A stretch of DNA of 64,000 nucleotides from a virus (IMGVR_UViG_3300015615_000196:64001-128000), one strand, 5' to 3'. Shown: positions 18,942-38,552, counted from the first letter of the stretch. Numbers and translations: made by a program. The notes: a model not told the origin generated them from the letters alone.

Positions 18942-19007
18942 TTACATACTTTTTCCCTGTCTACTGAAAGACTTCTTATAGGTTTTATATGAATATGACT
19001 TTTTCAT
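18942..19007 (-). CDS. leader peptide MKKSYSYKTYKKSFSRQGKSM (Lys/Tyr sensor)
   Basis: 21-aa ORF between promoter and terminator; its 3' end is complementary to the terminator 5' arm. Confidence 0.82.
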   Translation of the reverse strand: MKKSYSYKTYKKSFSRQGKSM

Positions 19008-30492: not shown

Positions 30493-30576
30493 GATGGTAT
30501 ACGTATGTACTGCAATATACGTAAATTCATCAGAAAAGTTATTCCAAGACGAAAATTAACATTCTGATTTGAGTAG

Positions 30577-30650
30577 TACCCCGTGAGAGAATCGAACTCC
30601 CGACCTTCTGTTTGTAAGACAGACGTTCTAAACCACTGAACTAACGGGGC
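30577..30650 (-). tRNA. tRNA-Val(TAC)
   Basis: TCTGT-CTTACAA-ACAGA. Confidence 0.92.
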
Positions 30651-30874
30651 ATCTTTTTTCTTTCTTCCATCAACTGTGCCATGAAATCTGCAATGTCTCG
30701 AAGACAAGTTTTTTCAAAGACAGTATGTTCTGCCGGATAAAAAGAATATTGTCGAAATGAACCAAACCAACGTACAGTGCCGAGAACTACACCGTTCTCT
30801 TTATTCTGTACCACAAACACTTTTGTTTTCCTATCAGGAAAATCTTGTTCGATGAATTCAATCCATTTAGCCAT
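30641..30874 (-). CDS. hypothetical protein within tRNA array
   Basis: RKTKVFVV...WFGSFRQYSF...CLRDI. Confidence 0.6.
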   Translation of the reverse strand: MAKWIEFIEQDFPDRKTKVFVVQNKENGVVLGTVRWFGSFRQYSFYPAEHTVFEKTCLRDIADFMAQLMEERKKMPR

Positions 30875-30877
30875 ATG

Positions 30878-30950
30878 TAGTCCGGGTGGGACTCGAACCC
30901 ACGATAGCTGCTTTGTAGGAGCAGTGCTTTTGCCACTAAGCTACCAGACT
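30878..30950 (-). tRNA. tRNA-Val(TAC), C33 variant
   Basis: CTGCT-CCTACAA-AGCAG. Confidence 0.85.
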
Positions 30951-31049
30951 ATGTAACAGCATACTTCATTCAGAGCCGTCAATCAAGACGATCCCAAGCG
31001 GGAGCCGAGTCCGTTTAAGAAGTTTCCAGCTTTACGCAAACTGTTATTG

Positions 31050-31120
31050 TACCCGATGAAAGAATCGAACTTTCGTACTTCGCATGTCAAACGAATACTC
31101 TTCCATTGAGTTAATCGGGC
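31050..31120 (-). tRNA. tRNA-Val(GAC)
   Basis: TTCGT-TTGACAT-GCGAA. Confidence 0.88.
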
Positions 31121-31125
31121 ATATG

Positions 31126-31210
31126 CGGTGAATTAAGGACTCGAACCTCGCCTCCCTTTTTGCGCTTAGGGTATGCTACCTATCCCGAAGGACAATTACA
31201 CTAAATCACC
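31126..31210 (-). ncRNA. atypical tRNA-like RNA (hairpin inserted in D-loop, no clear anticodon)
   Basis: GGTGATT/ATTCACC acceptor, GGTTCGAGTCC T-loop, TGTCC-TTCG-GGATA insert. Confidence 0.5.
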
Positions 31211-31279
31211 ATTTGGAACAATCGAAACTGTTCGAACTACTTTGACTACGTGTCTAAGTTGTTCCGATTATTTCCGTTG

Positions 31280-31352
31280 TAGCGGGTGTGGGACTTGCAC
31301 CACACGACCTCAAGGTTATGAGCCTTGCGAGATACTACTTCTCCAACCCGCG
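31280..31352 (-). tRNA. tRNA-Met(CAT), initiator-like
   Basis: CGCGGGT 5' end with 1:72 mismatch; CAAGG-CTCATAA-CCTTG. Confidence 0.85.
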
Positions 31353-31429
31353 ATATAATGTTGTCTTTCCAACTGCCAATAGTCTCAATTCTGTACGTCA
31401 TTCAGGTAGAGCACTACACCACCTTATTG

Positions 31430-31520
31430 TAGCGGGGGTGGGAATCGAACCCACGAGGTCAATTTTTTTAGACACAAGGTTATGAGCCTTGACTGCTACC
31501 GTCTACAGGGCTACCCCGCG
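31430..31520 (-). tRNA. tRNA-Met(CAT), initiator-like with long variable arm
   Basis: CGCGGGG 5' end; CAAGG-CTCATAA-CCTTG; ~20-nt variable region. Confidence 0.72.
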
Positions 31521-31761
31521 ATATAATTTTAATGACTTCACTTTTCTTTCCACACTTGTGACAAACATATTGAAATTCACTCCAACGTTTCTCTGTGAAA
31601 ATATTTCTGAATTCAACTCTTCCTAATGGTGTGTAAATCATTGGTAGATTACAATCAACACATTTCATTGAATCTCCCGCAGGAGTTATCGTCAATGGAA
31701 TGTAAGGTATAAACCAATATCCACAAGAAAAAATTTCTTTCAATGTGAAACCTTTCATAGT

Positions 31762-31839
31762 ATCGACAAGGGGAATCGAACCTCCGGCCACTTCCAAAGA
31801 AACAGAAGCCACAAGCACCACTTGTGTATTGATTGTCGA
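31762..31839 (-). ncRNA. degenerate tRNA-like element
   Basis: TCGACAA/TTGTCGA stem, GGTTCGATTCC loop, irregular anticodon arm. Confidence 0.4.
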
Positions 31840-31841
31840 AG

Positions 31842-31913
31842 TAGCGATACACAGAATCGAACTGTGGTTTTCCCCTTATGAGAGGGACGTACTGGCCGTT
31901 GTACTATATCGCT
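31842..31913 (-). tRNA. tRNA-CAT (Met or Ile2)
   Basis: TCCCT-CTCATAA-GGGGA. Confidence 0.85.
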
Positions 31914-32024
31914 ATATATCTCCGTTGCCGGAGAATATGTTTAATGTTCTTTTGGTGTTGTCTCACCAGCACTACCTTTTACGTTACCGTGATCCGTAGA
32001 GATCACGCAACCTTTTCTCAGGGG

Positions 32025-32282
32025 TTAATCGATTAAGATTAACTGTCTTTTCCGAAGCCTCGGCAAATCCATACGAAACCTATGTTCGTTGGCCTTGATC
32101 TTGGCATCAGCTAATGTCATCGCCTTCACATAAAAATTCAGAACATCACTCTCCTTAGAGGTTAGTTCAACCATCCAATAATGGATGGGTTCTCGGTACA
32201 CGACATGAGAGGGCTGAGGCAGTCTGACATCCAGACTCGGAATTACCCACCTCTTGTCGTCTTCTCTACTTGCGTAGTTCAT
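32025..32282 (-). CDS. hypothetical protein
   Basis: 85-aa ORF. Confidence 0.45.
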   Translation of the reverse strand: MNYASREDDKRWVIPSLDVRLPQPSHVVYREPIHYWMVELTSKESDVLNFYVKAMTLADAKIKANEHRFRMDLPRLRKRQLILID

Positions 32283-32388
32283 ACTCCATAATTGCTACCA
32301 AGACAAGCAATTAGGAGGTGTTTTGATTTTTAATCATACACGAAATTAAGAATAAAATTATTCAAACCAAAATGTCAAAGAACTATCG

Positions 32389-32462
32389 TCATCCGTAGGG
32401 GAATCGAACCCCTATTTACGCAGTGAAAGTGCGTTGTCCTTATTCCGTTAGACGAACGGACG
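32389..32462 (-). tRNA. tRNA-Glu(TTC)
   Basis: ACGCA-CTTTCAC-TGCGT. Confidence 0.9.
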
Positions 32463-32472
32463 ATAATTTCTG

Positions 32473-32545
32473 TAGCACGTAGGGGAATCGAACCCCTGTT
32501 CCCACATTGAAAGTGTGGTGTCCTTGACCGTTAGACGAACGTGCC
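32473..32545 (-). tRNA. tRNA-Glu(TTC)
   Basis: CCACA-CTTTCAA-TGTGG. Confidence 0.92.
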
Positions 32546-32558
32546 ATATATTTTAAAG

Positions 32559-32644
32559 TACCTATGGTGGGACTCGAACCCACACGCCCATTACTGAGCA
32601 CCAGATTTTAAGTCTGGCGTGTCTACCAATTCCACCACAAAGGC
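32559..32644 (-). tRNA. tRNA-Leu(TAA)
   Basis: CCAGA-CTTAAAA-TCTGG, long variable arm. Confidence 0.92.
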
Positions 32645-33021
32645 ATGTTGCCTGTTGTGATGTCACATAATCGACACTTATTTTTTGTTGCTTCTGTCAT
32701 ACTGTTCCAATTTATGTTTTGCTTCATTGATCAATGTTGTTTGATGCGCAACGTTTATTTCTTTTTGATTTGAACTTTTCTTCGTCAATGCATCCGTCAA
32801 TTCTTGTTCGAGAGTTGCAACTCTCTCGACTAACTTCTCTCTTTTTTTATCAATTTTTCCCATTTAATTTTTCTTTTATATCAGCTATCATTTCTTCGAC
32901 ATCGAAATCCTCAATCAAGTCCATTTGATCGTAGCCTTCTTTTGAGGTGTACACCACAAAGTCTCCGGCTTTAATCAAACAACCTTCTTCGGTCACTATG
33001 TCTCCGAACAGTTTACTCATG

Positions 33022-33093
33022 TGGAGGTATAGGGAATCGAACCCTAATTTCCTGATTGCAAGTCAGGCGTAATCGCCCTTATACGATACCCCC
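33022..33093 (-). tRNA. tRNA-Ala(TGC)
   Basis: CCTGA-CTTGCAA-TCAGG; G3:U70. Confidence 0.92.
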
Positions 33094-33423
33094 ATACTTC
33101 TTTCTTCTAATCGAGTCATCCAACTCTTTCAAGAAAGATTCTGGTAATTCTATCTTCCTCTGCTCGAACTCATTCAAAATTTCTTGCTTTGAAAAAAGTC
33201 CTTCGCCAATTCCACTACTCCATTCTTTCACCCACAAACCCCAACCTTTTTTTGAAGTGATTACTCCCTTCACAATGTTTGGGTGTCTTGTCTTCATCGT
33301 CTCTCTGAATTTGAAAACTCCGTTTTCGTAATCATTGAAACAACTCTTCCCATCTACTCCGTTCACATCCAATTCCACATTCACACTCGAACCACAGAAT
33401 GTAATTATTCCTGTTCGATACAT
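33079..33423 (-). CDS. hypothetical protein
   Basis: 114-aa ORF inside array. Confidence 0.5.
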   Translation of the reverse strand: MYRTGIITFCGSSVNVELDVNGVDGKSCFNDYENGVFKFRETMKTRHPNIVKGVITSKKGWGLWVKEWSSGIGEGLFSKQEILNEFEQRKIELPESFLKELDDSIRRKKYGGIV

Positions 33424-33520
33424 TCTCAGAAACAGTTCAAACTTTTTGTTGAACTTTTCGGAGAACGGTCTTTTGCGTCCATGCGGTAATTAGTCTTCAT
33501 AACTTAACCCTCATTTTATG

Positions 33521-33602
33521 TAGCCCAAGTAGGAGTCGAACCTACACGCCTTTCGGCACTCGCTTTTGAGACGAGCACGTCTACCAATTCCATCATTGGG
33601 CC
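33521..33602 (-). tRNA. tRNA-Leu(CAA)
   Basis: CTCGT-CTCAAAA-GCGAG. Confidence 0.92.
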
Positions 33603-33607
33603 ATATG

Positions 33608-33679
33608 CGGTCTATGCGAGAATCGAACTCGCAGCACCACCGTGACAGGGTGGGATGTTAGCCATTACACCAATAGACC
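33608..33679 (-). tRNA. tRNA-Asp(GTC)
   Basis: CCACC-CTGTCAC-GGTGG. Confidence 0.92.
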
Positions 33680-33739
33680 GTAGTAGTATCACTTATATAG
33701 ACGCTTCTCTTTTGAAGAACGATACTGTGCGCCATTGTG

Positions 33740-33811
33740 CAGTCCCTACGGGAATCGAACCCGCTTCTCCGGGGTGACAACCCGGCATACATACCAACGT
33801 ACCCAAGGACT
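33740..33811 (-). tRNA. tRNA-Asp(GTC)
   Basis: CCGGG-TTGTCAC-CCCGG. Confidence 0.85.
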
Positions 33812-33826
33812 ATATTGTATTCGTTT

Positions 33827-33984
33827 TACCCCCGGCAGGACTCGAACCTGCAATCCCTTACATTTCTTCTTGCTGTGTATTGGGATGTCCGGTTACGGTT
33901 CGTGAGCAAGAGCATTGGGGCAGTCAACCTTTCAGCAATCCTATTGAACTTGGCCAGATGTGTATACCAATTCCACCACAGGGC
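33827..33984 (-). ncRNA. tRNA-Leu-like RNA with ~80-nt insertion in place of the anticodon arm
   Basis: Leu-type D-arm GGTGGAATTGGTATACAC, T-arm GCAGG-TTCGAGT-CCTGC. Confidence 0.55.
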
Positions 33985-34067
33985 GAATACAAATTGAAAC
34001 TGTTGATGACGGTCAACACTAAGCCCCTCAATGCCTCTATGAGGACTGAGCACATTTCAATGTCATT

Positions 34068-34154
34068 GTAACAGCACCGGATGCATTAGACCACTATACG
34101 ACCTACCCCGAAGGGCAGGGTGGGATTCGAACCCACGTCCTCCGGTGCTACTAC
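34068..34154 (-). ncRNA. circularly permuted tRNA-like (YrlA-like) RNA
   Basis: Order: T-arm, acceptor stem closed by TTCG, D-arm, all enclosed by a 14-bp stem. Confidence 0.72.
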
Positions 34155-34172
34155 TTCAATATTTCAAAGAAC

Positions 34173-34451
34173 TTACTTGCCTTCTGCAAGCAGTTGGTCA
34201 ATGTAACCCATCGGACTTGTACCCGGAGGTAGCATTACGATGTTCTTGAACCCATTCTCTTTGGTGATGATTGATTCACTTTCATGAATCGCTCCTTTAT
34301 GTTTCTCACCGTAAGTTCCGGTCATGAGTTTCTTCGAAGCAGGATCAACATCACCCCATTCTGCATGGTGCGAAGAACTATTGTCGATAGGTTCAACGCA
34401 GAAGGTTCTACCTTCTTTTGTCGTCACATAAAATCTTCCAGTTTTACTCAT
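34173..34451 (-). CDS. hypothetical protein, first gene after attenuator 2
   Basis: GRFYV..GRTFCVEPI..WGDVDP..GAI. Confidence 0.65.
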   Translation of the reverse strand: MSKTGRFYVTTKEGRTFCVEPIDNSSSHHAEWGDVDPASKKLMTGTYGEKHKGAIHESESIITKENGFKNIVMLPPGTSPMGYIDQLLAEGK

Positions 34452-34476
34452 AACTCACTCATTTAAAAAACCTTAT

Positions 34477-34507
34477 AAAACAAAAAACCCGACTTTGTGG
34501 GTCGGGT
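34477..34507 (-). terminator. attenuator terminator of Asp/Leu/Ala/Glu/Met/Val array
   Basis: ACCCGAC-CCACAAA-GTCGGGT-TTTTTGTTTT. Confidence 0.88.
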
Positions 34508-34526
34508 CTTTCGAGTTTGATATTCT

Positions 34527-34646
34527 TTAGTATCCAATATCTTCATCTTCCTCTTTAGACCCAACAATAGCGTCATCCTCCACCATAGCCAACGCTACGA
34601 CAGATTCCATCGCTAAAGTTTCTAAAGATAATATTGAAGTTTTCAT
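34527..34646 (-). CDS. leader peptide MKTSILSLETLAMESVVALAMVEDDAIVGSKEEDEDIGY
   Basis: 39-aa ORF between promoter and terminator; contains GTTGGGTCT complementary to the terminator 5' arm. Confidence 0.78.
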   Translation of the reverse strand: MKTSILSLETLAMESVVALAMVEDDAIVGSKEEDEDIGY

Positions 34647-34741
34647 TTTCTGCTTTTTTTGAGTTTAATGTCTCTGACTCATAAATACGATACAAAGGTA
34701 TAAAAGGTTGCGTTCCCTCCAAACTTTTTTTCAAATATTTT

Positions 34742-37213: not shown

Positions 37214-37297
37214 ATGAAAAAGATCGTAAACGTAGTTCCGCAACCCCAACATCAGCCACAAAACCTGTTGCTTGGGGATACTATGATCGTATCTTAA
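37214..37297 (+). CDS. leader peptide MKKIVNVVPQPQHQPQNLLLGDTMIVS (Pro/Gln/His sensor)
   Basis: 27-aa ORF; CCG CAA CCC CAA CAT CAG CCA CAA run; GCTTGGGG complementary to the terminator arm. Confidence 0.85.
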   Translation: MKKIVNVVPQPQHQPQNLLLGDTMIVS

Positions 37298-37618: not shown

Positions 37619-37966
37619 ATGACAAGAGAAGAAAAACAGGTATACGATAGACGATGGTATGCTGAAAACAAAGACAGGTTAAAAGCCGAAAAAAACAAAA
37701 GAGGACGTGAAACACGGAGAAGAAACAGTAATTATATTACTGAATATTTGAAAAAACATCCTTGTGTTGATTGTGGTGAAAATGATCCAATCGTATTAGA
37801 ATTCGATCACATCGCAAAGAAAACAAAGAGTATTTCAGATATGATTCGTGGTGCATTTTCTCTTGAGACGATTAAAAATGAAATCAAAAAATGCGAAGTT
37901 AGATGTGCTAATTGTCATCGAAAGAAAACAGCAAAGCAATTTAACTGGCATCGTAACAGAGTGTAG
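37619..37966 (+). CDS. HNH endonuclease
   Basis: PCVDCG...LEFDH...KCEVRCANCHR. Confidence 0.85.
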   Translation: MTREEKQVYDRRWYAENKDRLKAEKNKRGRETRRRNSNYITEYLKKHPCVDCGENDPIVLEFDHIAKKTKSISDMIRGAFSLETIKNEIKKCEVRCANCHRKKTAKQFNWHRNRV

Positions 37967-38533: not shown

Positions 38534-38552
38534 CTTAACGTACTTTGAAATT

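Follow-up and report, generated by a model that had tools for sequence, protein, structure and literature searches.

A leader peptide sampling six tRNA families as a probable attenuator of a 13-tRNA operon in a jumbo phage

The window considered here, 64,000 nucleotides of the viral contig IMGVR_UViG_3300015615_000196, corresponds to positions 64001-128000 of a T4-like jumbo phage genome of 362,603 bp, which has direct terminal repeats and is rated complete. On its minus strand a short open reading frame (ORF), leader C, precedes array C, a set of 13 tRNA genes located at 33811-30576 by ARAGORN and Rfam. Since leader C uses codons of these tRNAs and stands before a predicted switchable terminator, the phage probably makes the tRNAs of array C only when ribosomes read the matched codons of the leader slowly. 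The element is thus likely to be a ribosome-stalling transcription attenuator, whose most likely purpose would be the on-demand replacement of tRNAs that are cut by host anticodon nucleases or drained in infection. A preliminary description of this DNA had proposed an OR-type attenuator over about six tRNA families; the anatomy of the leader, three sister leaders and co-variation across phages all support such a gate, the switching of which is predicted. Coordinates are collected in Table 1.

Array C contains two tRNA-Asp, tRNA-Leu(CAA), tRNA-Ala(TGC), tRNA-Leu(TAA), two tRNA-Glu, three tRNAs with a CAT anticodon, tRNA-Val(GAC) and two tRNA-Val(TAC). The leader ORF (34646-34527), the array and all features listed in the preliminary description are present where it had put them. 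Within the leader, 24 of 38 codons belong to the array's set, compared with 31% in the coding background (whole-ORF binomial p 5.6e-5). In codons 11-26 the array serves the amino acids of 15 of the 16 codons, all except Ser TCT; such a match is reached by none of 2064 phage coding stretches and by one of 2998 short ATG ORFs, a set that includes the leader itself. The comparison with the genome background that had been proposed as a check therefore shows enrichment that random short ORFs rarely equal. The enrichment of the matched zone stands, with its boundaries redrawn: the zone that is both matched and switch-competent comprises codons 6-25 and not 11-26. The four Leu codons are indeed TTA, TTA, TTA and TTG, and the GTC and GTA codons are accompanied by tRNA-Val(GAC) and tRNA-Val(TAC) in the array. 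An acidic run at codons 32-36 falls in the masking zone and is absent from the orthologues.

Leader C is one of four such leaders in the genome. The four main arrays hold 57 tRNAs, are disjoint and together cover all 20 amino acids, with Leu split between arrays by codon family. Each has a leader, a terminator and an antiterminator, the antiterminator of array B being the weakest in the model. Across the four leaders, 77 of 125 codons fall into the class of their own array (permuted mean 36.4, maximum 57 in 200,000 permutations). A content-blind scan of the genome for short ORFs with an A-rich start lying 38-60 nt before a terminator passed only four units, and three of these are the leaders in question.

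Co-variation between leaders and arrays was followed across about 150 loci collected by searches with the 92-aa protein of array C and the ligase of array B. Leaders were chosen by length, A-rich start and distance from stop codon to U-tract, not by content, with likely false positives kept and with thresholds fixed after the candidate list had already been seen; merging at 40% identity gave 33 leader families, including the four of this genome. These families partition the code in different ways (for example Cys/Leu/Val, Ala/Asp/Glu/Phe, Ile/Lys/Val, Phe/Gln and Asp/His/Ile/Arg), and 412 of 572 zone codons (72%) match their own array, compared with 169 (30%) and at most 254 after permutation. 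Matching drops from 72% before the structural switch point to 31% after it, and in 25 of 27 cases (9.4 expected) the end of the best matched run lies -4 to +2 codons from it. In the model the matched run thus ends where a ribosome would start to cover the antiterminator. These statistics, together with the match of each leader to its own array and the Leu and Ile codon-family results below, make it hardly credible that the ORF is incidental to a constitutive or leaky terminator and matches by chance; alternative pairings to terminator arms are common, as that explanation would have it, and the co-variation of 33 families effectively refutes it.

The match extends to codon families. Leaders of arrays with only TAA and CAA Leu tRNAs contain 19 TTR and no CTN codons, whereas those of arrays with CTN readers contain 11 TTR and 13 CTN codons, CTN being present in each of these seven leaders (p 1e-4 counted by codons, with three or four lineages on the TTR-only side). 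The avoidance of CTN that had been described for leader C therefore holds across phages at this level. Likewise, Ile ATA follows the TAT tRNA (8/0 vs 9/8, p 0.03). This bears on the idea that the same switch senses amino-acid starvation through uncharged tRNA, the additional tRNAs then competing for scarce amino acids. Starvation is the established input of leader-peptide attenuators, any stall would yield the same output, and Ser and Arg match at the amino-acid level only. However, the output consists of tRNA and RNA ligase, not of biosynthetic enzymes, more tRNA is no cure for starvation, and the division of Leu by codon family over two arrays and leaders would be needless for sensing it. 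Starvation as the trigger is therefore an unlikely reading, although it is the least unlikely of the alternatives considered.

Homologues of leader C, whose comparison had also been proposed, point to translation of the leader. Seven orthologues keep the frame, and all insertions and deletions before region 2 are multiples of three; between leader C and its orthologue in locus L059 four of five changed codons are synonymous, and many amino-acid changes among the orthologues remain within the array's set. The order of the peptide is not conserved; its composition follows the array. These properties also concern the possibility that no ribosome is involved and that tRNAs bind the leader RNA in the manner of a T-box, or that the peptide itself acts through nascent-chain arrest or as a small anti-defence protein. 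T-box riboswitches read one specifier codon by direct binding of uncharged tRNA, need no translation and have been reported before tRNA genes too. Leader C resembles them as a terminator/antiterminator switch that would report tRNA status, and its RNA forms a long stem with a whole-leader fold z of -4.0 (minimum free energy, MFE). Against this, no Rfam T-box model matches leader C at the gathering score or at E up to 1, the start codon, frame and triplet indels are conserved, the switch point fits the footprint of a ribosome, and the peptide changes its order while its composition follows the array. An arrangement of this kind is very improbable.

The RNA layout is that of a classical attenuator, with a protector helix 1:2, an antiterminator 2:3 and a terminator 3:4. 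The pairing of 34565-34557 with 34509-34501, described earlier, comprises 9 bp, one of them G.U, and its second strand (34509-34501) also forms the 5' arm of the intrinsic terminator; a complement of regions 2 and 3 over all nine positions arises in 191 of 50,000 codon shuffles. The earlier structure was right in this respect and overlooked the protector helix. The inner pair said to enclose the stop codon is present, with a stability of only -1.7 kcal/mol by itself, and a similar AT-rich inner helix occurs in the orthologues L059, L177 and L029. With differing sequences, all seven orthologues form an antiterminator of greater stability than the terminator, and regions 2 and 3 co-vary. For the terminator itself, 98% of cells are paired in the seven orthologues and a single compensatory change is seen; the covariation of the terminator taken alone is not significant (60 of 500 shuffles).

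Computed folds are consistent with switching by a paused ribosome. In ribosome-free RNA the long 1:2 domain together with the terminator is 10.3 kcal/mol better than the antiterminated form, and with a ribosome at the stop codon the margin for the terminator is 6.6-10.4 kcal/mol. With the A site at codons 8-13 this margin falls to about zero; in isolation the antiterminator has a stability of -18.0 kcal/mol, compared with -13.4 kcal/mol for the terminator. For a transcript that ends before region 4, the probability that region 3 is captured is 0.9-1.0 for pauses at codons 7-24, 0.73 at codon 25 and 0.2-0.4 at codons 26-35. A ribosome paused at the regulatory codons would thus leave region 2 free, the equilibrium margin being weak for codons 21-25. 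Leader C accordingly combines a short ORF with a start site, an enrichment of the codons that the array supplies, and a terminator with a mutually exclusive antiterminator.

From these features, statistics and folds the following course of events may be inferred. Host RNA polymerase would start at about 34685, and a ribosome would translate the leader behind it, as conservation of the frame suggests. Fast decoding of the Leu (TTR), Glu, Ala, Met, Val and Asp codons would leave region 2 covered or held in the 1:2 helix, and the predicted outcome is the terminator. If any one family were short of functional aminoacyl-tRNA, the ribosome would pause in codons 6-25, and region 2 is computed to capture region 3 before region 4 is made. 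Read-through would yield the 3.9-kb operon with its 13 tRNAs, possibly helped by boxA-type processive antitermination, and the new tRNAs would relieve the pause and close a negative feedback loop. Four such modules would span the whole genetic code.

Several points weigh against this model. At full equilibrium the terminator remains the better structure by 4-10 kcal/mol when the ribosome stalls at codons 21-25, and switching there therefore needs the order of folding. The stop codon lies 14 codons beyond the switch point, so that region 2 is left uncovered once a ribosome has reached the stop, and termination depends on the 1:2 helix forming again. Capture of a terminator arm is also seen elsewhere, with 12 of 68 other terminator-like sites reaching 0.85; as a stand-alone test it was rejected for this lack of specificity, and the weight of the capture result comes from conservation and position. 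The related contigs of the family comparison are not fully independent, and for Ser and Arg the choice of codon family does not follow the anticodons in related leaders. Finally, sequence does not tell tRNA cleavage, demand and starvation apart as the trigger.

Related modules are found on bacterial chromosomes. Arrays of Bacteroidota carry the same 92-aa family together with Rnl2, SPFH and PcfJ genes behind tandem leader-terminator units, and their leaders in Flavobacterium and Chitinophagaceae encode 11-20 different amino acids with a weak match to the array (102 of 221 vs 87 permuted, p 0.006, from related loci). These leaders look like general translation sensors, and the chromosomal modules may be the source of those in phages. 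By extension, the phage leaders might merely sense translation speed, any slowing (antibiotics, ribosome damage, late-infection uncoupling) opening all four arrays, with a secondary codon match inherited from the all-amino-acid chromosomal leaders. The chromosomal tandem leaders are as this would predict, modelled pauses at codons 2-5 likewise permit antitermination, and an Anabaena tRNA array is induced by general translational stress (PMC8421152). The phage leaders, however, are re-written whenever an array is re-partitioned, and four disjoint alphabets would be superfluous in a general sensor, which makes this explanation quite improbable. A wider form of the attenuator model has about an even chance of being correct: a few attenuators would split the codon families among them for surveillance of the whole code, each reporting the tRNA families destroyed by host immunity and releasing the matching replacements alone, in some cases with a repair ligase, as a refinement of general attenuators of chromosomal tRNA and RNA-repair arrays in Bacteroidota. 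The layout of region 2 and terminator is not specific to arrays, since only 8 of the 30 loci recovered by a pattern search precede tRNAs; seven of these eight have matched leaders, and the eighth has almost no upstream sequence.

Table 1. Features of leader C, array C and related elements (window positions unless marked otherwise)
Feature	Position	Strand	Basis or remark
Bacteroidota-type primary-sigma promoter: -33 box 34723-34720, 19-nt spacer, -7 box (TAnnTTTG) 34700-34693	34693-34723	-	sequence; putative function
Second conserved motif, putative phage (late) promoter	34681-34689	-	before all four leaders; putative role
Leader C ORF, 39 codons + TAA, A-rich start region without Shine-Dalgarno	34527-34646	-	
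Sensor zone, codons 6-25; 17/20 codons read by array tRNAs (Leu TTR, Glu, Ala, Met, Val, Asp)	34572-34631	-	
Region 1 (protector), paired in ribosome-free RNA with region 2 and the flank 3' of it	34618-34628	-	MFE
Region 2 (antiterminator 5' strand), codons 28-30	34557-34565	-	
Weak inner helix around stop codon, 34541-34536 with 34524-34519	34519-34541	-	
Intrinsic terminator: region 3 34509-34501, 7-nt loop, region 4 34493-34485, U-tract	34478-34511	-	
92-aa protein, first gene of operon	34173-34451	-	
boxA-like element directly 3' of the 92-aa ORF stop codon	34161-34172	-	putative NusB/NusE role
Circularly permuted tRNA mimic, Y-RNA (YrlA)-like	34068-34154	-	present in L059
tRNA-Leu-like scaffold, ~70-100 nt inserted in anticodon arm	33826-33986	-	relaxed ARAGORN only; conserved in L059
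tRNA-Asp(GTC) x2, tRNA-Leu(CAA)	33520-33811	-	ARAGORN/Rfam
tRNA-Ala(TGC)	33021-33093	-	ARAGORN/Rfam
tRNA-Leu(TAA), tRNA-Glu(TTC) x2	32388-32644	-	ARAGORN/Rfam
Second boxA-like element	32372-32383	-	
Three CAT tRNAs: 31913-31841, 31520-31429, 31353-31279	31279-31913	-	
tRNA-like element, extra D-loop hairpin, non-canonical anticodon loop	31126-31210	-	sequence; not called by ARAGORN/Rfam
tRNA-Val(GAC), tRNA-Val(TAC) x2, array end	30576-31120	-	
Small interspersed ORFs: 33423-33079, 33020-32850, 32863-32678, 32282-32025, 31758-31480, 30874-30641	30641-33423	-	
cREC, stand-alone vWA, metallophosphoesterase, Rnl1-type ligase flanking array C	35765-34742, 29230-28505, 27313-26186		
Array A: 28 tRNAs; Trp, Phe, Thr, Arg, Ile, Ser, Asn, Gly, Cys, Leu-TAG/AAG			
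Sister leader A	genome 61730-61602		just outside window
Sister leader B (Lys/Tyr), before 5 tRNA-Lys, 3 tRNA-Tyr, RNA ligase, bL12	18942-19007	-	
Sister leader D (eight consecutive Pro/Gln/His codons), before 8 Pro/His/Gln tRNAs	37214-37297	+	
Chromosomal tRNA arrays behind tandem leaders, near Rnl2, SPFH, PcfJ, RNase-H-like genes	L139:9000-12000, L147:8330-9950, L148, L150		Ferruginibacter, Flavobacterium

Between the leader terminator and the last tRNA no strong terminator was found, and the sole internal -7-like box lies inside an ORF; array C is therefore probably a single operon of 3.9 kb, and the next promoter-like box lies beyond it at 30519. The first protein, of 92 aa, has no match among Pfam, PHROG or Atlas families; relatives of it are encoded within tRNA arrays, both in other phages and on Bacteroidota chromosomes. 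Of the interspersed ORFs, 33423-33079 and 32282-32025 have no Pfam or PHROG match. None of the 13 tRNAs encodes its CCA end. From identity elements, the first of the three CAT tRNAs is probably, as we assume, elongator Met, and the other two are taken to have initiator-type acceptor ends with an unpaired first position.

A boxA-like 12-mer has three of its four genomic copies in sense orientation inside arrays (0.09 expected), and a looser form occurs 19 times in sense and twice in antisense orientation in related arrays. Besides the two elements of array C, copies lie at 18379-18368 and 38540-38551, so that three arrays are represented. The same motif occurs in the 16S-23S rRNA spacer, a known place of boxA: in Flavobacterium terrae and in a Ferruginibacter it lies between the tRNA and 23S genes. 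This distribution suggests Nus-dependent antitermination through the untranslated part of the operon.

Several elements of the operon are aberrant. The mimic at 34154-34068 matches Rfam YrlA with E 0.003 and 29.7 bits, under the gathering score of 69, and has a fold z of -4.2; no PF05731 match to a Ro60/TROVE gene was found in the complete phage genome, although the host may encode one. A segment at 34050-34010 is complementary to the insertion of the tRNA-Leu-like scaffold, and both are conserved in L059; the orthologues L062 and L177 have other inserted tRNA-like elements. The tRNA-like element at 31210-31126 has a counterpart in L177 in which the D-loop hairpin is changed yet still paired, and a second aberrant element lies at 31839-31763. 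One might speculate that the YrlA-like mimic and the two or three aberrant tRNA-like elements serve as nuclease decoys.

It had further been suggested that an ATA codon in leader C could report a lysidine-modified CAT tRNA, for which this array offers no support. ATA is codon 5, outside the matched run; it stands at position 5 or 7 in all orthologues and at codons 5-7 also before arrays without any CAT tRNA (L005/L006, L020 and L029). The phage reads ATA with a tRNA-Ile(TAT) in array A, whose leader has ATA inside its matched run, and no TilS gene was found in the phage. Since ATA also occurs without a CAT tRNA and a separate TAT tRNA exists, a lysidine reporter was rejected for array C. A different case is L051:8600-11450, with six CAT tRNAs, no GAT or TAT tRNA and three ATA codons in its leader, which may be a candidate sensor of a lysidine tRNA.

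The sister arrays hold further genes. At 17959-16947 the Lys/Tyr array, which is under leader B, includes genes for an RNA ligase (PF09414) and for the ribosomal protein bL12, and at 37619-37966 the Pro/His/Gln array includes an HNH endonuclease gene with PHROG matches. A small separate cluster, L010 (genome 297132-299292), has a terminator before it but no evident leader, and comprises Leu-TAA, a tRNA with the anticodon CTA and one unclassified tRNA; array A shows a CTA-like element at genome 59159-59272 at a relaxed threshold. At 24184-19283 there is an NAD salvage cluster with a Nudix-fused adenylyltransferase-like gene and NAMPT, as well as PRPP-synthetase-like and NrtR-like genes recognised by eye; it resembles phage NAD reconstitution pathways.

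The genome encodes a gp23-type capsid protein, a terminase and two sigma-70-family factors. No RNA polymerase beta subunit or phage RNA polymerase gene was found in the complete genome, and transcription is therefore assigned to the host polymerase. The host is probably a member of the Bacteroidota: the named relatives of phage bL12 all belong to this phylum, mostly to Cytophagia, as do 14 of the 15 genome matches of the 92-aa protein. The fifteenth, L151, is a 425-kb contig filed as a Pacearchaeota metagenome-assembled genome (MAG); its length and match coordinates are those of viral locus L053, which makes a mis-binned phage probable. In the phage genome, Shine-Dalgarno motifs show no enrichment upstream of genes (14 vs 11 of 250), and A content is maximal at -12/-13. 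The TAnnTTTG motif, which corresponds to the -7 consensus of Bacteroidota (PMC9723704), occurs upstream of 20 of 250 ORFs and inside 4, and the core of the second promoter-like motif, invariant among four orthologues, upstream of 26 of 250 and inside none. Alternative genetic codes were set aside because table 11 already gives 84% ORF coverage. No cultured relative carrying array C was found; the only matches were single tRNAs and, in two proteobacterial phages, the 92-aa protein. The arrays of these two phages have no convincing matched leader before them.

Leader-peptide attenuators are known from amino-acid operons, such as trpL, hisL, leuL and pheM/pheST and the multivalent thrL and ilvL (of ilvGMEDA). 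PMC6614838 treats trpL as such an attenuator, and leader-peptide attenuation has been inferred in Flavobacterium (PMC9723704). The phage system shares with these operons the short ORF with regulatory codons, the exclusive 1:2, 2:3 and 3:4 helices, the intrinsic terminator and the OR gate over several amino acids. Unlike them, leader C would regulate the tRNAs themselves in direct feedback, samples six families in one leader, and is one of four leaders that divide the code, with Leu and Ile resolved by codon family. In every respect that sequence can test, the system behaves as a multivalent amino-acid attenuator, but one that controls tRNA genes. No published case of leader-peptide attenuation controlling tRNA genes was found, in a search that reached few subscription journals and whose outcome is no proof of absence.

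Long tRNA arrays (L-arrays) have been reported in Bacteroidetes, and in Anabaena the trn operon, a normally silent tRNA array under the TrcR repressor, is induced by impaired translation and co-regulated with an RNA ligase (PMC8421152, PMC10272220). The phage likewise has a long tRNA array linked to RNA-repair genes. Control of trn, however, is exerted by a repressor at promoter repeats and is not codon-specific, and its paper contains neither 'leader' nor 'attenuat'; no TrcR-type direct repeats over the promoter are evident by eye in 34740-34650, a region for which no dedicated search was run.

The second comparison is with phage tRNAs that act in counter-defence, such as the tRNA-Tyr of T5 and SP15 against retron-Eco7 and tRNA-Lys against PrrC, the expression level of the phage tRNA deciding escape from retron-Eco7 (PMC11555353). 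A hypothesis on anticodon-loop mutations belongs to the same line of work (PMC10264068). The tRNA-rich region described here could in the same way replace host tRNAs cut by defence nucleases. Counter-defence tRNAs, on the other hand, are described with strong promoters and no sensing step, and neither PMC11555353 nor PMC10264068 mentions attenuation. The RNA ligases and cREC in or near the arrays, and RtcB, which is encoded elsewhere in the genome away from the arrays, count in favour of tRNA replacement as the purpose; genes of the cREC, RtcB and RNA ligase types have been tied to the repair of cleaved tRNA (PMC7824862).

Why phages carry tRNAs has been an open question for 50 years (PMC10264068). 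A switch that read the tRNA pool by codon family would mean that phage tRNAs are induced in response to shortage, and a single reporter could then tell codon compensation from starvation and from counter-defence. It would extend classical attenuation from enzymes to tRNA genes, with direct feedback on the tRNA pool, and would explain the grouping of tRNAs into arrays. Natural leaders with different alphabets would then be ready-made in vivo sensors for the tRNAs attacked by unknown defence systems of Bacteroidota.

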